Part shown: positions 3,800-64,000 of the stretch, piece by piece
Layout: each line of letters begins with the position of its first letter
How positions within the stretch are numbered: position 1 is the first letter of the stretch
Source: Squalus acanthias
Lineage: Eukaryota
Reading direction: 5' to 3'
Assembly: GCA_030390025.1 (NCBI GenBank)
Contig: CM059431.1
Location: forward strand, 121,336,001-121,400,000
DNA length: 64,000 nucleotides
Made by a program: the position numbers and the translations under genes
The notes under the pieces: model-generated
Told to the model about the DNA's origin: nothing
The model's input: the letters and a program-made list of their open reading frames with translations, nothing else
Database searches by the model: none

Positions 3800-4962
3800 C
3801 TTATCCTGACTTTATTTCAACTAAAAGTTCAGTGCGCATATTTTATTATTTTTTACAAGAAAGGCACCCCTGATTTATTTGCAAAACTGTACAGAATAAA
3901 TAGCTTACAGGAATCTTACATTTTGTAACTGAAAAAATAGCTTGCAGACTTCTATATTGTATTTGAAACAAATCATACCCTTCAACATTTTGGTCTTTGT
4001 GTGCTTTTTTTTCCCCCCACATGTGTCAGCTTTTAAACTTATTGTGATTTAAAGATTTACAAAAAAAAAAGCACAACTTCTTTTTGTTTCAATTTTTCTT
4101 TAAAAAAAAGCAGTGAATGTAGTCCCAGGCTGAGAGGAACTGGGAATGCCTAATGATATAACTGACACAAGAGCAACGCCACAAAGAGAACATGACACAG
4201 TCTAAATACAGTGTGCAGCCACATCTGTGTCTGCTTCTTACAGTAGTTATTTCAGACTTGCAGATATGCAAGTACAAACTATAGTCTATAATTTAAAATA
4301 AAATCCAGCAGCATCAGAAGATTGGATTGTCAGAAGTCATGTAACACGCCCCCCCATATCAGACAATGAAATCATAACAGAAGACTGTGAGAGTATACAT
4401 GTTAACTAAAATAAAAATAAGCAAGGTCACTGGTTTACGTTGACCGAATAAGTCAGATTCCGTTTTGTTACATGGGATTTTGACTGTTGTTTTGGGGATC
4501 ACGTTCCACGATTTCATCCATTTTTCCATGAAAACTGCAAACCAGTGGCCTTGAAAATAAGGCTTCCCAGTAAATGTGCATACAGGCAGTAATCACACCT
4601 TCAGGTACCCTCTTTCGACCACCATTGGTTCACATGACAACATCTTTAGGTTATATTAATAGGATTGTCTTTACAACTACAAAATGATCGTCCTGACGCT
4701 TTATAAAGCTTTGTGCTTGACTACCGCACAGTCTGTATACTGTGAAACAAATGCTGTTGGCAGTTACTGTACCTGTATCTGCATTCTCAATGGCTGTTCC
4801 CAATGGTTTGTCTATCGATCCCTGAGTTTAATAAGGATTACTGCTGTATTGTATGTAGAAAAAGAGAATCATCTGTAAAGGCACTAATGTCTTAGTATAG
4901 CAAATGAGCTCATTTATCACAATGTAACAGCCAAGTTAAAAATGTCAATGTCCTTCAAGAAG
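3800..4962 (-). other. Probable SLITRK6 3' UTR with candidate polyA signals
   Basis: Repeat-free AT-rich stretch downstream of the stop codon; minus-strand AATAAA (plus TTTATT) at 3811, 3842 and 3875. Confidence 0.5.
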
Positions 4963-7532
4963 TCATGGTTGGTTCAATGCTGTCTGTTGTTCCAGTACCT
5001 CTAGGTAGTCAGGCTCAGTTTGTAGCTTTGCTTTCAGCTCAAAATATTCGTTTTTCGTCTCTTCAACCACAACTTTTTTAGGTCTGGAATACATGATCGC
5101 TTCCATCAGTTTCAGCTCTTCATGCCTCGATGGGTAACGAACATCGAGTTCTGGCTGCAGCGGCGGGATATTTTTCTTCAGGTATTCGGTGATCCCAATC
5201 TGCTGAAGTTCCCTTTCTTTTTCAAGAATATTTCTGTACATTGAACTAGGATCACGGAGGGGCACAAATTCTGGGGTCTGCTCTATTACACTGAATTTGA
5301 TATTGGAACTTGTGAGCAGAGAATCATTTTCTCTCATCATGTGACTCCTGTAAATCATTTTTGGCTCATTTCCATCTTTGCTTTCGCTGTCCAGCTCTAC
5401 ATCTCTCATGTTATATGGATGACTTCTGCACACTGGACCTATTGTGTTAATTGTGTGCTGCTCATATATATTTCCATCTGGTCTTTCTTCAGTATGGTGG
5501 GTCCTCTTATGTCCATATACACTGTACTGAACGTGCAATGGACTGCAGTCCTGTACTGGAGTAGTTTTAAGTTTTTTCTTTGATCTCCTCCGACGATGGA
5601 GCACAAGGACCACCATCCCGGCTGCACTGAATACAATCAATATGAATACCACTAACATGCTAAGGATCAAAACAGAAAGTGGCACCGTGTCCATGATAGA
5701 ACTCAGAAGGCTGGAGGCTGTACTAGTGGCTGCTGTGGTCAGGCTGATATCAATGGGCTGTGTTGGTGGGGCCGGGATATTTATTAATCCAGGACATATC
5801 AATTCATTGTTCAACATTTTCAAATCTTTCTTGGCAAACTTTTCAGGAGATTCGCACATAATCTCGCTCACAGTTACATTTTTATTGAGTTTTTCCATCC
5901 ATTGCTTCAAGCTTACCAAATCACAAGTGCAATCCCATGGATTGTCTTGTAGATCAATCTGAACTAGTAATTCAAGTTGATCTATTACATTGCTCACAGG
6001 GAGATGCATAAAATGGTTATTTTTAAGATTTAACCGTAAGAGTGGAACGCCAGCAAATATGTGTGGAGGCAAACTATGAAGGAGGTTATTGTTCAAATAT
6101 AAGACCTTGAGCTGTAGGAGACAGTGAACGTCCCTGGTACTATCTCTTTGATTATATTGTGTTCCAGATACAAGTATTGAAGGCAATGGAGCCCGATGAA
6201 CATTTCTTTTGTTAATCTTACAATATTGTTCCCATTCAAATACATCTTGTGGAGATTGGTGAGGTTTGCAAAAGCATCATCCTCAATTACTGTTATTCGG
6301 TTGTTCCCTAAATGGAGTAATTCCAGGCTGCCATAACCTTGGAGATCATATTTTGTCACAGACTGGATAATGTTATCAGTCAAATAAAGCTTTATTGGAT
6401 TTGGTGGACTGGGTACAAGGTCTGATAAACTTTTAATGTTTCTTTCTTGACATTTCATTATTTGCCCTACATTTGGTTGTGTGCTGCAATGACATGTTGT
6501 TGTGCAGGGCGATTTTGGATGGGCCGCAGGTCTTGTTATAGGAATTTTGCCATCATCCTGTCCATCAGGTTGTGGAATATATGGATCATTTTTAGGTTCT
6601 TTAATAACTGATTTATTAGCACTCTGAATATGAGTATTATCAGCAACTGGAGTTACCACCAAATGAATTGAATTTATGGGTTCTTCAAAGTCAGTTCCAG
6701 ATCCAGTAGGGCAAATCTCTGTAATTGGTGTTTTGGTTAAAACTTTACCTTGCAGTCTAAATGGGTGCACACAAACAACATCATCGATATTAGACTGGGG
6801 AGGCATGTTTTCCAGCCAGGATCTGAGTGGTAATAAATCACAATCGCATTTCCACAAGTTATCCTTCAGTTGAAGCTCCATTATCCTGCCAATATGCTCC
6901 AAAAGACCAACATAAGGAAGTGAATCTAAGTGATTTCCTCGAAGGTCCAGGTGCGTCAGGGGCACAAAACGGAAGATGTTGGTGGGGAGAAAGGGGATTG
7001 CATTGTCATTCAGGATGAGCACTTTTAGCCGGTGAAGCTTACTGAACGCACCAGGCTCAATAATATGGATTAAATTATTGTCTGCCTGAAGGAATTCCAA
7101 ATTGTCCAGTCCTCGAAATGTGCCCTCTCGCAGTACTTGCAAATAGTTGCCATTTATATGCAAGCGTTTTAGAGAATTAAGGCCAGCGAAAATCCCAGCT
7201 TCCAAGTCTTGCAAATTATTCTTGCCGAGATGTAGTGACAAAGCATTCCTGAAGTTCATGAAGTCATTGGGATTTAACATGCTCACAAAGTTTTCTTGTA
7301 GGTTAAGATTGTAGGTACATGTCTGCGGCGGTTTTATTTGGGATATTTCGTTAATGTCCTTGTTTTGACAGTTTATATGCAGCAAGCCATCTCTTTCCAC
7401 ACAGGAGCAAAGACTCTCACACACTTCCTTGTCTGAAGCATTTGAAGGATCTGCCTTCTGGGAACTGATTAGAACTAAGACTGCACTTAGAAGAAGGATC
7501 CAGGTCAACATTTTCTCAGAAATAAAGTCCAT
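4963..7532 (-). CDS. SLITRK6: SLIT and NTRK-like protein 6, single coding exon; reading frame broken by a 1-bp deletion at about 6118-6122 in this sequence
   Basis: ORFs 6093-7535 and 4963-6186 join into signal peptide + LRR1 (LEFLQADNN, FRFVPLTHLDLRGN, WLENMPPQS) + LRR2 + TM (VPLSVLILSMLVVFILIVFSAAGMVVLVL) + C-terminus EELKLMEAIMYSRPKKVVVEETKNEYFELKAKLQTEPDYLEVLEQQT, which is characteristic of SLITRK6. ATG at 7532; the ATG at 7511 (MLTWILLL) aligns with the mammalian start. The span is 2570 nt, one base short of a multiple of 3. Confidence 0.93.
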
Positions 7533-7556
7533 CAAAATTTCACGGTGTTCAAATAT

Positions 7557-7570
7557 CTGTTAAAAAAAAT
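7557..7570 (-). promoter_or_regulatory. 3' splice acceptor of the SLITRK6 coding exon (exon starts at 7556)
   Basis: Minus strand reads ATTTTTTTTAACAG|ATATTTG, 24 nt upstream of the ATG; SLITRK genes have a non-coding first exon. Confidence 0.75.
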
Positions 7571-8479
7571 CCACACAATTTATGTTATTTTTTGGACATT
7601 GTACACATAGAGGAACACAAAAGAGTCTCTGATTTAAATCTAAAAACAAAACCTTAAATAGGTACGTCATTTACAAGATCATGTTTTAGGGCGTGTTTGC
7701 ATTGCAAGTTAAGTGGTTGTGCTGAGCAATTTCTGCTTCGCACTGACACTCACGTGTATTGTAGATCTAGAGTCAGTGCTCACCTGACTCCAGAGAGAAA
7801 CAATGTGGAGTTGTAGACTCACACCGCCTATGTTTATCACCATACAAAGTGTAACTCTGTAACTCCGATGCATTAGTATTTATATGGACTTTCAGAAGGC
7901 ATTCGATAAAGTCCCTCATAAGAGGCTGTTAGCTCAAGTTGAAGCTCATGAAATTAAGGGCAAATTATTGACCTGGTTAGGAAATTGGCTGAGTGACAGG
8001 AGACAAGCAGTAGGGATAATGGGCAGGTACTCTAATTTTGTGACTAGTGGTGTCCCTCAGGGATCTGTGTTGGGGCCTCAACTATTCACAGTATTTATTG
8101 ATGACTTAGATGATAGGATAGAGAGCCACACATCCAAGTTTGCTGATGACTCAAAGATAGGCGGCATTGTAAGCAGTGTAGATGGAAGCATAAAATGACA
8201 AAGAGATATTAATAGATTAAGTGAATGGGCAAAACTGTAGCAAAGGGTTTCAATGTAGGCAAGTGTGAGGTCATCCACTTTGGACTAAAAAAGAATAGAT
8301 CAGAGTAGTTTCTATATGGTGAAAAGCTAGAAACAGTAGAGGTCCAAAGAGACCTAGGGGTCCATGTACATAGATCATTAAAAAGTCATGGACAGGTACA
8401 GGAAATAATCAAAAAGGCTAATGGAATGCTGGGCTTTATATCTAGAAGATTAGAATACAAGGGGGTAGAAGTTATGATA

Positions 8480-8831
8480 CAGGAAACTCTCTTTTAACCG
8501 GCACCCAAATAACCGGAAATCTCTCTTAACCGGCAAAATTCTTGAGTAGGTAACCGGGGTTTTCCTTCATCTCTCCTTTAAAAATAACCCCGAGGCATTT
8601 GCCTTGTATCGGAGCATGTAGATTGGGAGGGGAATGTGCAGCCCGGGTAGGCAGCGGACACGACAGATGGTCAGCTGGCGGTCCCCGGGGAGACGGAGCT
8701 CCGAATGCAGGCGCATGTCAATGTGTACAGGGCTCTCATACGTTGGGAGATATAACTCTCCGTTATCCGGACTTTTTGATTAACCGGCACCACGCCGGTC
8801 CCGTCGGTGCCGGTTAATAAAGAGTTTCCTG
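8480..8831. mobile_element. pogo/Tigger-like (Tc1/mariner) MITE nested in CR1
   Basis: TIRs CAGGAAACTCTCTTTTAACCGGCAC / GTGCCGGTTAATAAAGAGTTTCCTG, flanked by TA at 8478-8479 and 8832-8833. Confidence 0.85.
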
Positions 8832-8982
8832 TAGTTAGACCACACCTGGAGTACTGTGAGCAGTTCTGGGCACCACACCTTAGGAAGGATATATTGGCCT
8901 TGGAGGGAGTGCAGCGTAGATTTACCAGAATGATACCTGGACTCCAAGGGTTAAATTACAAGGAGAGATTGCACAAGCTAGG

Positions 8983-9185
8983 ACAAAAGCAAAATACTGC
9001 GGATGCTGGAAATCTGACTTAATAACAAAAAATGCTGGAAATACTCAGCAGGTCAGGCAGCACCTGTGGAGAGAGAAACAGAGTTAACGTTCTGACGAAA
9101 GGCCATCGACCTGAAACGTTAACTCTATTTCTCTCTCCACAGATGCTGCCTGACCTGCTGAGTATTTCCAGTATTTTCTGTGTTT
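8983..9185. mobile_element. Penelope-like inverted pLTR remnant nested in CR1
   Basis: Inverted arms of about 63 bp (9029-9091 / 9115-9177); 15-bp TSD ATTGCACAAGCTAGG / ATTACACAAACTAGG. Confidence 0.75.
9089..9123 (+). ncRNA. Minimal type I hammerhead ribozyme motif (PLE-type)
   Basis: GTT-CTGACGA-a-AGGCC-ATC-GACCT-GAAAC-GTT-AAC: CUGANGA core, stem II, GAAA and a palindromic stem III. Confidence 0.6.
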
Positions 9186-13006: not shown

Positions 13007-15077
13007 GGCCTCGATTTTAACCCCCTCTCCTCCCACCCCCCAATGGGTGGGGGAGGTATTTAAAATATCAGGATCGGGCAACCCAACCCCGACCCAATCT
13101 CATTCCCGCCCCTTTAAATTTTAAAGTGCACAAATCAGGCCCTAGACGATGCTCCCACAAAAGGCAGGTGGGGGCCTAATTAACATACCAAAGTCGCGGC
13201 CTGTTGACATCATCAGCCCCACAAATTAGATTTAACAGTAAGTGAGGGAGAGTCCCATACTCTGGGATTCCCGGCAGCAGATTCGAGGCAGGAACTGCTG
13301 GCTTCCCGAGGTAAGTGACCCTGTGGGTCAGTAGGAGCAAGAGTGCTCCCCTTGAGCCCCTCAAGGAAACCTTAGGCTTCCCCCAGCCACAATGTTCATC
13401 CTCCCCACCTTCCCAGCCCTCCCAATCTCAAACCTCTCACCAGCCCTCCCGATCTCAAACCTCTCACCAGCCCTCCCGATCTCAAACCTCCAGCCAGCCC
13501 TCCCGATCTCAAACCTCCAGCCAGCCCTCCCGATCTCAAACCTCCAGCCAGCCCTCCCGATCTCAAACCTCCAGCCAGCCCTCCCGATCTCAAACCTCCA
13601 GCCAGCCCTCCCGATCTCAAACCTCCAGCCAGCCCTCCCAATCTCAAACCTCCAGCCAGCCCTCCCGATCTCAAACCTCCAGCCAGCCCTCCCGATCTCA
13701 AACCTCCAGCCAGCCCTCCCGATCTCAAACCTCTCACCAGCCCTCCCGATCTCAAACCTCCAGCCAGCCCTCCCGATCTCAAACCTCTCACCAGCCCTCC
13801 CAATCTCAAACCTCCAGCCAGCCCTCCCGATCTCAAACCTCCAGCCAGCCCTCCCAATCTCAAACCTCTCACCAGCCCTCCTGATATCAAACCTCTCACC
13901 AGCCCTCCTGATATCAAACCTCCAGCCAGCCCTCCCAATCTCAAACCTCCAGCCAGCCCTCCCGATCTCAAACCTCCAGCCAGCCCTCCTGATATCAAAC
14001 CTCCAGCCAGCCCTCCCAATCTCAAACCTCTCACCAGCCCTCCCGATCTCAAACCTCCAGCCAGCCCTCCCGATCTCAAACCTCCAGCCAGCCCTCCCGA
14101 TCTCAAACCTCCAGCCAGCCCTCCTGATATCAAACCTCTCACCAGCCCTCCTGATATCAAACCTCTCACCAGCCCTCCTGATATCAAACCTCCAGCCAGC
14201 CCTCCCAATCTCAAACCTCCAGCCAGCCCTCCCAATCTCAAACCTCCAGCCAGCCCTCCCGATCTCAAACCTCCAGCCAGCCCTCCTGATATCAAACCTC
14301 CAGCCAGCCCTCCCGATCTCAAACCTCCAGCCAGCCCTCCCAATCTCAAACCTCTCACCAGCCCTCCTGATATCAAACCTCCAGCCAGCCCTCCCAATCT
14401 CAAACCTCCTACTAGCCCTCCTGATATCAAACCTCCGACTAGCCCTCCCAATCTCAAACCTCCAGCCAGCCCTCCTGATCTCAAACCTCTCACCAGCCCT
14501 CCCGATCTCAAACCTCAGACTAGCCCTCCTGATATCAAACCTCTCACCAGCCCTCCCGATCTCAAACCTCCGACTAGCCCTCCTGATATCAAATCTCTCA
14601 CCAGCCCTCCCGATCTCAAACCTCCGACTAGCCCTCCTGATATCAAATCTCTCACCAGCCCTCCCGATCTCAAACCTCCGACTAGCCCTCCTGATATCAA
14701 ATCTCTCACCAGCCCTCCTGATCTCAAACCTCTCACCAGCCCTCCCGATCTCAAACCTCTCACCAGCCATCCCGATCTCAAACCTCCCGATCTCAAACCT
14801 CCCGTCAGCTCTCCTGATTACCGACGTTTCCTCAGCTCTCCCACCCGGAGCTGACGCTCACTTCCCAGTGCTGTGGACCATCCCCACGGGTCCCTGGCTG
14901 CAGCCTCCTGCTACTAATGTTTCCTCCCGCCCACCGGCCAGGCTGCCAATTTGGCCGGCTGCCGGGAGGGATATGCTAATGAGGCCCTACCATTACGATC
15001 GGCAGGGCATCCACGTCCTCGGCATTGCCTGGTTCTTTTGGCCTCACTCTTACTGGCTCCCTGTTAATATCGGGGCC
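13007..15077. mobile_element. Harbinger-type non-autonomous element containing a minisatellite
   Basis: TIRs GGCCTCGATTTTAAC / GTTAATATCGGGGCC; 3-bp TSD ATG. Confidence 0.8.
13412..14802. repeat. 27-bp minisatellite, about 51 copies
   Basis: Unit CCAGCCCTCCCGATCTCAAACCTCCAG and variants, seen directly in the sequence. Confidence 0.97.
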
Positions 15078-16436: not shown

Positions 16437-17665
16437 CATAAGAACATAAGAACATAAGAAATAGGAGCAGGAGTAGGCCATATGGTCCTTTGAGCCTGCT
16501 CTGCCATTCAATGAGATCATGGCTGATCTTCGATTTCAACTCCACTTTCCCGCCCGATCCCCATATCCCTTGATTCCCCTAGGGGGAAAAATTGAGTTGC
16601 TTTGCGCCTCCCGTTAGCGCTAATGGGGCGCAAAGCACCTAGTACCCAGGCACGGTGCCGCTAACGCCTCCCGCGAAATTCAGCGGGAGGTTAAAGGCGG
16701 CGGTTGCCGGTAGCACCCCGTGGCGCTGCGCCTCTGGCGATGATGTCATCGCCGTGCACAGCACTCCGCTTGCGCCCCAGCTGCAAACTTCGCTCGCGCC
16801 CCCTGACCTATGTGCCGGACGCTATGTCCGACAGGGCTAGGGTGCCGTGTTTGCGGCTGCGGCGGCGCAAATTAAAGGGCAGGTGCCGGGCGGCCAATTT
16901 TTTGGGGGCCATCTGTCAGCACCTGCCCCCTTTCGCCTCCTCATGCGGGGTGCCGGCCGCGATCGATCAACCCGGCATTCCTCGAGTGCCGGGCTCTTTC
17001 GCCAGGCACCCCGCTCTCCGGTGGTCCAGCAGGGCCCTGGTGCGCACTGCACTAGGCCCCTCCCCTTTAATCAGGGGAGGGAGGCCTGTAATACCGCGGC
17101 GCTACGTGCTAATGTGCGTGGTGCTGTTGCACGTAGTGCTGCGATATTGAATGTTAGCGCCCTAAGAGGGAGGGGGAACGCTTCCAGTAGTGCCCCGCCT
17201 CCTGCTTGGGATGCTTCCACTCAATTTACGACACGGGGGCGCTAACTTTTTTCGGGGCGCTAAAAGTAGCGTCCTGGCGAAGTTAGCGCCCCAATGGGGA
17301 CGTGAACTTATTTTTCCCCCTAGAGTCCAAAAATCTATCGATCTCAGCCTTAAATATACTCAACGACAGAGAATCCACAGCCCTTTGAGGTAGAGAATTC
17401 CAAAGATTCACAACCCTCTGATTGAAGAAATTTCTCCTCATCTCAGTCCTAAATGGCCAACCCCTTATCCTGAGACTATACTCCCTAGTTTTAGACTCTT
17501 CAGCCAGGGGGAACAGCCTCTCAGCATCTACCCTGTCAATCCCCCTCAGAATCTTATATGTTTTAACGATATCACCTCTCATTCTTCTAGGCTCTAGAAA
17601 GTATAGGCCCAATCTACTCAATCTTTCCTCATAGAACAACTGTCTCATCCCAGGAATCAATCTAG
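16437..17665 (-). mobile_element. CR1/HER1 LINE 3' end split by a MITE
   Basis: ATAAGAAC tail repeats; ORF 17283-17747 YEERLSRLGLY...RRNFFNQRVVNLWNSLP. Confidence 0.88.
16582..17320 (-). mobile_element. Harbinger MITE of the same family as 59479-63664
   Basis: Ends GGGGGAAAAATT / TATTTTTCCCCC; the left end matches the reverse complement of 63580-63664; duplicated (C)TA(G) target inside CR1. Confidence 0.88.
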
Positions 17666-18711
17666 TTGTCATCATCACCCTCACTGCAACGCCCTTGTTA
17701 GATAACGGTGTCTGAACCATCAGTATATGAGATCCTCTATATATCACTGACTATTACACAGTAGTATCAATTAAAGATTAACTAGATCCTTTACTGCAGC
17801 ACTTTTTGATTACGACAGTTGATGACAACTTCCAGATACTACTATTGTAACACAAACAATCATTTTTTGTACTGTGACAGTTAATAGTGTCAATGCAACA
17901 TGAAGATCCCATGTGACACAAAACTGTATTGTGGTACAGGAATCCTTTGACAAGATGTGGACTAAGTAATCTAAAAATACTCTAGTGACCTGTCACAGCA
18001 AAGTCTCCTCTCACTGCTTGATTATTATGCATAAAAATATAAAGTTACAGAAAGGGTTTTAAAATTATGATTCTTTTTGTTTTCTTTTTGAAAACAAGTG
18101 TTTTAAAAATTATGCCTAAACTAGCAGAGACACAAACATTTGGAAAAGAGAAATAAATATAGTTTTCCTCAAGTAGAAACTGTGCCCAACCTCGGCCAGT
18201 GATAGCGGGTTAAAATAGCAAGGAACACAAGCTACAAATTAGGGGTTTGGAATAAAAAAGGATGTTTGGTGGAAATGTTTCAAAAAGTTACAGAATAAGG
18301 TAACAGAGAAGGCCATTGAAGTGCATTGCATTTTTGGGGAAGGAAGGATTTGAAGGATTTGGTGAAAAGGTGAGCAGGGGGGGCTGATCTTTGAAGAAGC
18401 AGCAAGGTTTGTTGGATATGATAGTCTTTTCCTGTTTCTAAAAGCTCTTTTTATGTTCTGACTGTCTACTTACACCTGTTTACTGGCGTGTGTTGCAATA
18501 TGTGAAACAAACTCTCCTTGCATTATTCTAAATAAATATATTGGGCATAGGTGTAGGCTCAATATTTTACTGGAATAAATAAATTCTCTTTTGTAACTAC
18601 AATAAGTCAAGAGATCCTTTATTTGAGTATGTTACAGTTAGCTGAAAACACAGGATAAAATTAGACATGGACATTCCAGAAACTATAACAGTAATATTGA
18701 GTAAAAGAAAG

Positions 18712-33599: not shown

Positions 33600-34700
33600 T
33601 TTTGCTTTTATAAATCGATCTCTGTCGAACAGGCTGCTCTGTTGTTGGAAAGAAGCAGGCGGTGAGGAGCAGCTTTGATGGTGGGTCGCTTACCTGCAGA
33701 CCAGCTGGACTGTCCCAGAAACACAATCGGCCCGCTTAGATCTGCCAGCCAGTAATTTGGCGAGCAAGAAACAGAAACGCGTATTTCCGTAAATTGTAAG
33801 CAGTGCATCGAAGTGCGTTTCCCAGTGGAGGATGTAAGTGTAACGTAAGCTTCACTTACCTACAAGAGCAGCGTGGCCAGGATCAGAGCTGCCAGTATAG
33901 TGGTAGTGCAGAAGGGCAATGTCAGTGAAGTTTCTTTCACTTGGCTTTTTTCCTCAGAGAACAAAGTAGTCTCATTTTGACCCCGACTGTCAGTTTTCCA
34001 ACAGGTCCAGAATTGCTCTGACACAGTGCGCCAGCCAGACAGGCAGGTACTTGTTTAAAAAGGATTGGAAGTACCAGTCAAACTAAATAGGACGATTTCT
34101 GCTTGAGCAGACACCCGGCGTGCAGACTCAACTTGCTCCGGGTGCAGTTTCCTTAGATGCTGTTTTGTTTTAATAAAGACGTTTTTTTTTCCCCCCAAAA
34201 AATAAAGAGAACAAGAAAACAGTCCAAATCTACACTGGAGCTACAAGCTATCTTTCCTGGTGTTCTCTGAGTAATCTGATTGCCAGAGGGTTCTTACTTG
34301 CAGACTTCTTGACTTCTGAATCAGGCTCGGAAGCCCTGCCCCCTTTAGATGGCTTTAATCTGCTCTCGTCAGAAAGCGTGCGAGCTCCACCCTAGGACAA
34401 ATCATTTTGTCATTTGCACAATACCTCGTCCCGTCCCCCCCGCCGTCACAGAGTTACCGGAACTTCACGTAGCTTCGTCAATCTGCTCCTAATGGGATAC
34501 TAAACATGCTTCACGACTGCAACAGCCCTACATTTTACACTGCAATGAGCCTGATTTCTCGCCGTTTCTCCTGCATCACACTCGCTCACCGATAGGAAAT
34601 ACAATTGAATCCATAAAGGATTAGATCGGGAAGTACAGCATCCTTCGTTGCTTATTAGTTTACCGTTCTTCAGGCTATGAATTTAGATCACCAAGAGGCA
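33600..34700 (-). promoter_or_regulatory. Candidate SLITRK6 promoter and non-coding exon 1 (CpG-enriched, repeat-free)
   Basis: CpG-rich non-repeat sequence with a GC box at about 34435; minus-strand consensus donors TAG|GTAAGT (33860/33859) and CAG|GTAAGC (33694/33693). Assignment to SLITRK6 is inferred. Confidence 0.5.
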
Positions 34701-58059: not shown

Positions 58060-58607
58060 CAACAACAACAACAACTTGTATTTATATAGCACCTTTAACG
58101 TAGTAAAATGTCCCAAGGTGTTTCACAGGAGTGTTATAAGACAAAAAATTTGACACCAAGCCACATAAGCTTGGTCAAAGAGGTAGGTTTTAAGGAGCAT
58201 CTTAAAGGAGGAAAGAGAGGTTTAGGCAGGGAATTCCAGATCTTAGGGCCTAGGCAACAGAAGGCACGGCCACCAATGGTTGAGCGATTATAATCAGGGA
58301 TGCTCAAGAGGGCAGAATTAGAGGAGCGCAGATATTTCAGGGGGTTGTGGGGCTGAAGGAGATTACAGAGATAGGGAGGGGCGAGGCCCTGGAGGGATTT
58401 GAAAACAAGGATAAGAATTTTGAAATCAAGGCGTTGCTTAACTGGGAGCCAATGTAGGTCAACGAGCACAGGGGTGATGGGCGAACGGGACTTGGTGCGA
58501 GTTAGGACATGGGCAGTCAAGTTTACGTAGGGTAGAATGTGGGAGGCCAGCCAGGAATGTGTTGGAGTAGTCAAATCTAGAGGTAACAAAGGCATGGGTG
58601 AGGGTTG
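58060..58607 (-). mobile_element. L2 LINE 3' end
   Basis: SPITPVLVDLHWLPVKQRLDFKIL...LAPPYL; (TTG)n tail. Confidence 0.9.
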
Positions 58608-58861
58608 ATAGGAATCAGGAGAATTCTCAGGAAAGGCTGTAATGACAGCAGTTGGAGTCTGAAAGCCAAGAGTGTTTTCTGGAGAATCTTTCAGAGCAGC
58701 AGACTCAGCAGAATGAGAAAAGTTACATGCAGAAGAAAAAAGGAATGGCACCATTAGAAAAACCTGTTGGAGTAGACTTTGGAGAGGTAGTGGCCGTGAC
58801 ATTATCACTATTGGTAATCAGGAGAGTGCTGGCGTAACAGTGGGGCTTGGTTTTAATTACT

Positions 58862-61931: not shown

Positions 61932-63160
61932 CTATAGGGGTTGTGGGTTGCTTTCCATCATGTTGTTCTCCATGCCAGAAGCCATCTTCTGAGTAGGGGC
62001 CCAGAAGCGGCTTGTTATCAGCCATTGACGGACGGCCCTTGCAGTTTCAACATTGTGGGCCTCCCTCCCGCCTTGGTGCTGATGCTGATCATCCTCCTCA
62101 TCCTCCTCCTCTTCCTCCTCCTCCTCCTCAGGTGGTGCACCAATCCCTGGTGACATTGGCTGGGTCCTGAGGATTGCAAGGTTATGAAGCATGCAGCACA
62201 CAACTATGAAGAGGGAGACTCACTCAGGAGAGTACTGCAGGGCTCCTCCTGAGTGGTCCAGACAGTGGAACCATTGCTTGAGCACGCTGATCGTCTGCTC
62301 AATGATGTTCCTGGTGGCGAGATGGCTCTCATTGTACCACAGCTCAGCAGGGGTGTTGGGGTTACAGTGTGGTGTCATCAGCCAGGTGCAGAGTGGGTAA
62401 CCCTTGTCCCCGAGGAGCCAACCACTTGGCTGATGCGGTGCCTGGAAAAGGTCTGGCACAGCAGTCTGGCGCAGGATGAAAGCAGCGTGGCTGCTGCCAG
62501 GATAGCAGGCATTGTCGGCGAGTATCAGCTGTCTGTGGTCACAGACCAACTGGACATTTAAGGAGTGGAACCCCTTGCGGTTTTGGAAAACCTCTGCATT
62601 CTCATGCGGTACCCGCAATGCCACAAACGTGTAGTCAATGGCGCCCTGCACCATGGGGAAGCCCGCTATCCTTGCAAAGTCAAATGCGCGTTCATGCTGT
62701 TTGGCCCGGATCATCGAGAAAGAGATGTACTGGCGGCTCCTTTTATACAGGGCATTTGTCACCTCCCGGATACAGCAATGGACCGCAAACTGGGAGATAT
62801 TGACAATGTCCCCAGTAGCTGCTTGAAAGGAGCCGGTGGCATAAAAATTCAGAGCCACTGTGACCTTCACTGCCACCGACAGAGACGCCCTGGTCCTCAG
62901 TTGAGGCTGCAGATCTAGTTGCAGCAGTTGGCAGAGCTCAGTGACCACCTCCTTGCTGAAGCACAGCCTACGCAAACACTGCTCCTCAGACAAATGAATG
63001 TAGGAGAATTGTTCCTGGAATACCCTGGGATGGTAAGGTCTACTGTGCAGAGGCCCACTGGCCCTCCTTCCTCTGTCCATGATTGCCAATCTCTCTCTGC
63101 GTCTCTGATGCCTCTGATTCTGCAGGCGCAGGACCATGCCCCGAATCAGTGCAGCCCCCA
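61932..63160 (-). pseudogene. Harbinger (HARBI1-like) DDE transposase with one premature stop at 62220-62222
   Basis: GFPMVQGAID, NRKGFHSLNVQLVCD, WLLGDKGYP, RNIIEQTISVLK, CCMLHNL; ORFs 62220-63230 and 61932-62201 are in the same frame. Confidence 0.9.
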
Positions 63161-64000
63161 CAGTCTCTTGACAATCGAAGTAATGAAGGTCAAATCCAAA
63201 AGAACCTGCAAAGTGCTGCTCAGTAGCCAAAACTCCTTCACACAGTGTTGACCCTCTACAGAAGTCTCTCTCTCTCTCTCTTTCAGAATCTCTATCAGAA
63301 TGAGTGGTGCAAAAATGTCTACCACAAAAAAAGGCAGGAAGAGGGTGCCTTTAAATAGCGCTCCCCAGCCCCTTTCTGACTGCAAACGCTCCCCTTTACC
63401 TGTCGTTGCTTGCAGCAGGTGGAAAGGAGGGGGTCACCACTCAATATCCGGTCCGGGGCACCACGGGGCGTTGCACGCTCGACTGACGTCACGATCTACA
63501 GGCGCAGGAGATCGTGGCGGTTGAGTTTAGCGTCGCCGCAAAAACTCTGGTCAATTTTGCGAGCGTTGCAAACATCGCCGCACCTGGGCGCTAGTTGCTT
63601 TGCGCCCCATTAGCAACCTCTTAGGGCGCTAACTGAAGGCGCAAAGCAACCAAATTTTTCCCCCTAAGTCCTTACTTTATTTGTAATAGGCAGAAACTAT
63701 ACTTTGACTTATCAGACCTGGGTTTGTATCTAGCCCAAACTGCTGGGATAATATGGGATGGTGCTACGCTCTAAGTAGAAAAGTTGTACTTGCAAACAAT
63801 ATGGGTCGGAGATAGGGCTAAAAAATTGTAGCTCTGATTCTCCAACCCGCAGTCCCTGTGCCATTTATGGCTTTTGTTTCTTATCCAGCTGCAAGAATTC
63901 TAAGTTAACAGTTTCAGTTGAGTCCTATTGAACAGAATTGCACAGTATAAATGACCTGAAAGGATGGCTGGGGGAAGGAAATGTCAATGGTGAAACAGGT

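Follow-up and report, generated by a model that had tools for sequence, protein, structure and literature searches.

The frameshift in SLITRK6 of a shark assembly is most likely an error of the consensus

In long-read contigs no error is commoner than the short consensus indel, and such indels produce false frameshifts, also where one haplotype stays unpolished, according to passages of one preprint (10.1101/2020.05.22.110833); excerpts of two further sources treat the same errors (PMC9516821; 10.1101/2021.07.16.452324). The closest described cases are TLK1 in a hummingbird primary assembly (10.1101/2020.05.22.110833) and PCDH17 in an older zebra finch assembly (PMC9516821), in each of which, as those excerpts present it, a small indel interrupts an intact, conserved gene and reads of the same animal were mapped. 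A figure that counts against error comes from high-accuracy human assemblies, in which a mean of 77.87% of frameshifted genes are backed by truth-set calls (PMC12212083, in excerpt). The shark SLITRK6 described here likewise carries a small indel in an intact conserved gene, and differs from TLK1 and PCDH17 in that the comparison was with contigs, from samples that may or may not include the assembled animal.

Truncation of the same gene is known from human disease. The alleles c.1240C>T and c.120_121insT p.Asp41* cause recessive deafness with myopia, as excerpts of PMC11430182 and PMC7709052 report, and nonsense-mediated decay (NMD) is presumed, as a prediction, for p.Asp41* in the part of PMC7709052 that concerns it. 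The human truncating alleles in these excerpts stop before the transmembrane helix, as the assembled shark gene does. They are validated, segregating and homozygous in patients, whereas the shark lesion is one assembled haplotype, contradicted by both of the other contigs that cover it (2/2). A literature search on SLITRK6 in sharks found nothing on the gene in these fishes among the part of the titles returned.

The stretch analysed, hereafter the window, is 64,000 nucleotides long, and SLITRK6 occupies positions 7532-4963 of its minus strand. This span of 2570 nt is one short of a multiple of three. As assembled, the 5′ frame (6093..7532, minus) opens with an ATG at 7532 and runs for 479 codons, ending in PGTFTVSYSSRSYI before a stop at 6095-6093; it encodes a hydrophobic N-terminus, the first leucine-rich repeat (LRR) domain and repeats one to four of the second, followed by a short out-of-frame tail. 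The 3′ frame (4963..6117, minus) holds 384 codons from 6117 to the normal stop at 4965-4963 and encodes the last LRRs and then an LRRCT cap (starting near 5937), a transmembrane helix (near 5673-5611) and a cytoplasmic tail that closes with PDYLEVL. Read directly, the minus-strand letters of 6140-6090 agree with those given in the initial annotation, and its gene name, one-base deficit and 479-residue product are borne out by the frame and by homology, as is its view that the downstream part is intact, with 384 open codons. A tblastn search of the window with the sawshark orthologue (P0003) returned two abutting matches in different frames, covering residues 1-472 at 92% and 472-857 at 95% identity. 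The same search found neither a second SLITRK copy in the 64-kb window nor a second lesion in the SLITRK6 frames.

SLITRK6 here consists of an upstream exon, a 26.3-kb intron and a single coding exon. Contigs of two RNA-like runs, X6 and X17, have loose ends at 7558 that match 33862-33891 exactly (the loose part in X17 is 183 nt long, and the match was established for its first 30 nt). These spliced contigs join 33860 to 7556, in keeping with the single coding exon already proposed from the sequence; the RNA nature of the two runs is an automated guess, yet their junctions are spliced. The 3′ end of the upstream exon (33860..33891, minus) is followed by a donor, GTAAGT, beginning at 33859, and this exon is read as non-coding because the ATG sits in the next one. 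The intron (7557-33859, minus) ends in a splice acceptor (7557..7580, minus) with a T tract and AG at 7558-7557, and the coding exon begins at 7556. In two further runs, X1 and X2, the coding stretch is continuous. The intron also holds a 27-bp tandem array of about 51 copies (13413-14787), strongly skewed between the two strands, each of which carries long open frames. Elsewhere in the window, a 376-codon open frame at 62220-63350 (minus) has by eye the look of what we take to be a Harbinger-type transposase, and frames at 7863-9022, 17283-17750 and 58134-58817 resemble decayed pieces of LINE reverse transcriptase, again as judged by eye.

Sequence comparison places the predicted gene as a SLITRK6 orthologue, nearer SLITRK6 than SLITRK1-5. 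The top matches of the 3′ half come from sharks and rays, bear the name SLITRK6 and are 85-95% identical, and no other SLITRK name occurs among the 120 matches listed for this half, many of which are unnamed. The best is that of Pristiophorus japonicus (P0003, UniRef100_UPI00398ED8A5), whose halves are 93% (436/469) and 95% (364/383) identical to the window. Residues 27-277 of the 5′ half match PDB 4y61_B (SLITRK2; E 3.9e-86) and 4rca_B (SLITRK1; E 4.8e-75), paralogues that span the first LRR domain only and are uninformative on a lesion in the second. Pfam finds LRRs in both halves (LRR_8), the cysteine caps align with those of orthologues, and the two frames combined give the two-LRR-domain architecture. 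The hydrophobic N-terminus is probably a signal peptide. A 21-residue stretch at 5673-5611 with a mean hydropathy of 2.89 is the predicted transmembrane helix, and with the conserved C-terminal tyrosine motif PDYLEVL it completes the layout of one helix and a tail. Domain order and the spacing at the lesion site are the same in P. japonicus and other cartilaginous fishes as in the window; their SLITRK6 is annotated as one open frame, whereas the window record is split by one base. The mammalian motif quoted in the initial annotation is indeed present in mammalian proteins, for example P0016. Four rodent and rabbit models (P0076, P0077, P0083 and P0085) all lack 31 residues (595-625 of P0018), a gap just before and into the predicted membrane helix that may reflect an internal splice or a common annotation quirk. 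Shorter mammalian isoforms were considered as an account of the lesion and rejected, the missing residues lying near 595-625 and not at the lesion site.

The lesion (6118..6120, minus) was defined by comparison with other samples. Contigs of 4 of the 23 runs listed were compared with the window, and two of them cover the site: X1 (sample S1, study P1, depth 16.3) and X2 (sample S2, study P2, depth 12.3), both labelled organism A; X3-X5 come from the same sample as X2. X1 and X2 each span 4900-7600 in a single contig with 99+% identity to the window, from which they differ by 4 and 6 substitutions, respectively. Relative to both, the window lacks one base between 6119 and 6120 and carries a substitution at 6118 that the initial annotation had not noticed: each covering run has an extra G (plus strand) behind 6119 and G>T at 6118 (2/2), and the window's form is seen in neither (0/2). 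Read by hand, the restored frame gives T-V-L-L-Q between PGTF and LKVLYL. What the window lacks is one of two adjacent Cs, no more than two bases from the substitution at 6118, a synonymous one in the open frame. X17 lacks cover here and X6 is interrupted by a hole, so that neither was counted and no RNA contig of these two runs bridges the lesion. The hole in X6 measures 56 nt (6096-6151) and lies between two contigs of depth 20.6 and 12.2; a single bubble at 6118-6120 would not produce edges at these positions, and a filter can cause such holes, which in themselves prove nothing.

These contigs bear directly on the suggestion that SLITRK6 was lost, or truncated to a secreted LRR ectodomain, in a very recent and now fixed event. 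The window's own sequence speaks for this. Both X1 and X2 have the base, and a lesion that is not common to all individuals is thereby excluded as a fixed loss; with no further lesion, no faster change in either half, and a product whose second LRR domain would be missing its final repeats and LRRCT cap, we regard fixation as extremely improbable. The two samples also answer, in part, the proposal that reads or transcripts be searched for the extra base: it was found in contigs of two samples. The best covering run may come from the assembled sample, in which case at least one allele of that animal is intact. Minor alleles are lost from contigs, and a heterozygous carrier would look identical.

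The X1 contig alone carries a duplicated GATC (6584..6587, plus), inserted at 6583, at one of the 13 GATC sites in the stretch. A second, real frameshift was considered and rejected, since the duplication forms the GATCGATC junction of MboI-type proximity ligation, for which the probability by chance is about 2%; the junction sequence of such libraries is given in an excerpt of PMC4556012. We read the duplication as a library artefact and not as a feature of the gene. Proximity-ligation contigs can thus hold false frameshifts of their own, and X2 matters because X1 demonstrates that one contig can hold such an artefact. Private substitutions are evenly spread, with 6118 and 6588 in the window, 5851 and 6615 in X1, and 6097 and 6954 in X2, so there is no excess in the window. 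At 6588 the window encodes N and all four runs K (4/4), and Chiloscyllium and Hemiscyllium have the same residue as the window; this private base was considered as the mark of a noisy record and dropped, the other haplotypes having equally many. At 6277 the window and X1 encode D, whereas X2, X6, X17 and most orthologues have G there.

The spacing of the restored frame at the lesion site is common to all 25 of the listed orthologues, which read SVLPQ there in most sharks and SALLQ or SSLLQ in some rays. Over 146 proteins the spacing is standard in 140; in 4 the search pattern ran on (standard by eye) and 2 were unmatched. Measured against four outgroups, amino-acid changes private to the window number 6-9 (5′ half) and 4-6 (3′ half); the intact Pristiophorus copy has more, 19-21 and 8-13. 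Substitutions between the runs and the window are synonymous in 3/3 cases downstream of the lesion and in 3/5 upstream, the other two changing a residue (6277 and 6588). By these measures the predicted protein shows no sign of decay in either half, a lack that cannot tell an error from a young allele.

The missing base at 6119/6120 is, with a probability we put at roughly 0.8, an assembly consensus error, and it is then the record that is broken and not the gene. Of the three explanations offered by the initial annotation, assembly error is thus favoured, a segregating allele keeps a minor share and a very recent fixed loss drops out, the base being present in both covering runs. Mechanistically, the consensus may have skipped one C of the CC pair, probably next to a synonymous variant at 6118, a position at which reads that disagree would make correction harder; a slip beside a variant site is suggested because the missing C adjoins the silent substitution. 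If the deletion and the substitution were independent events, their falling within 2 nt would occur by chance in about 0.4% of cases. The probability of an indel error in a 2570-nt frame was computed as 0.23 at Q40, 0.025 at Q50 and 0.003 at Q60, a calculation that stands apart from the accuracy of the present assembly. Homopolymer lengths in the window are uninformative on error. In the 27-bp array, 49 of 49 unit spacings are exact (13415-14738), which counts against error, the test excluding only error rates above about 2 per kb.

The main competitor of a consensus error is a real null allele, private or rare, that was heterozygous in the assembled animal and whose haplotype the assembler took. 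On this account one complex event removed the base and changed its neighbour. A deletion with an adjacent substitution can arise as one real complex mutation, a point against error, and a single mutational event accounts for the 2-nt adjacency no less well than a consensus error at a variant site. The contigs, moreover, cannot display a minor allele, and the window is otherwise clean, as the exact array spacings attest. Carriers would also be expected, the human disease alleles being recessive nonsense or frameshift changes (PMC7709052, in excerpt). From mutation-selection balance we estimate that, for a constrained recessive gene, null haplotypes have a frequency of 1e-4 to 1e-3. This prior lies, partly by our own reckoning, below the error rates of assemblies other than the best. 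Neither covering sample (0/2) has the allele, and the exact truncated protein is absent, from either start, from a collection of 15 billion sequences. No protein with the truncated tail was found either, a weak result in that it concerns 10 candidates and close relatives of those lengths were also missed. Searches for proteins that span or end at the lesion site gave one match among 10 candidates in one case and 0/24 in the other, nothing useful, and 42 pattern matches for the site in metagenome contigs yielded none that was confirmed. We therefore consider a carrier allele unlikely, at odds of about one in six.

Were the lesion real, it might be circumvented, either through removal of a cryptic intron with its 3′ end at the AG at 6113-6112 or through ribosomal frameshifting. 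The bases before 6112 do resemble a 3′ splice site. Between 7400 and 6114, no frame-restoring donor scores ≥5/7, and the GT..AG across the lesion measures 11 nt, which is far below the size of a spliceosomal intron. The run contigs have no splice joints at the site, no slippery run is seen there by eye, and a bypass is needless once other samples are intact; it seems to us barely credible.

The consequences of a real allele can be predicted from the gene layout. Its premature stop precedes the normal one by 1130 nt and falls within the last known exon, and because of this position junction-dependent NMD is not expected, so that the truncated mRNA would plausibly escape it. The second LRR domain of the product would break off behind repeat four, short of the remaining repeats and the LRRCT cap. 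A functional or stable secreted ectodomain is unlikely because the second LRR domain loses these parts, and the secreted ectodomain proposed in the initial annotation is accordingly doubtful, the product ending uncapped inside that domain. In a carrier, the 479-residue uncapped fragment would likely be misfolded and without effect.

The RNA-like contigs gave a second observation on this exon. A 58-nt contig of X6 (organism B; depth 9.8) joins 4802-4773 to 7556-7529, linking a splice-donor-like site in the 3′ untranslated region (4767..4802, minus; last exon base 4773, GT at 4772-4771) back to the acceptor at 7556. This site lies 190 nt after the normal stop of SLITRK6, and the joint is a canonical GT/AG junction of a downstream donor with an upstream acceptor, as in exonic circles. 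A neighbouring 1323-nt X6 contig would end exactly at 4773, provided that there is no indel beyond the compared stretch, and the depth of the back-splice-like contig compares with 12.2 for the contig of the linear exon junction (contig means, 9.8 vs 12.2). The junction, seen in one contig of one of the two RNA-like runs compared (X17 is without cover at the donor), would be the mark expected of back-splicing into a circle that takes in 2784 window bases and with them the complete SLITRK6 coding sequence. Because four letters are common to both sides of the junction, it may instead stem from template switching or exon repetition. At a distance the coding exon is flanked by an inverted repeat pair (446-834 with 19132-18708, 66% identity). 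No SLITRK-derived circle came up in literature searches confined to the accessible main text of papers. The circle-like junction may be worth more than the frameshift, as it would circularise the entire SLITRK6 coding exon.

If the lesion is a real carrier allele segregating in a wild shark, it would provide a natural SLITRK6 loss-of-function allele for ear and eye wiring in a cartilaginous fish. It would also contribute a single observation on the recessive load of a shark and could serve as a marker when populations are screened, but would not be a new mechanism. If it is a consensus error, as we favour, its interest is that of a correction: annotation of the record would call SLITRK6 broken, and screens for sensory gene loss in sharks could pick it up falsely. 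The animal likely makes a normal membrane receptor of about 856 residues which, by analogy with mammals, may act in neurite and synapse adhesion in the ear and eye.
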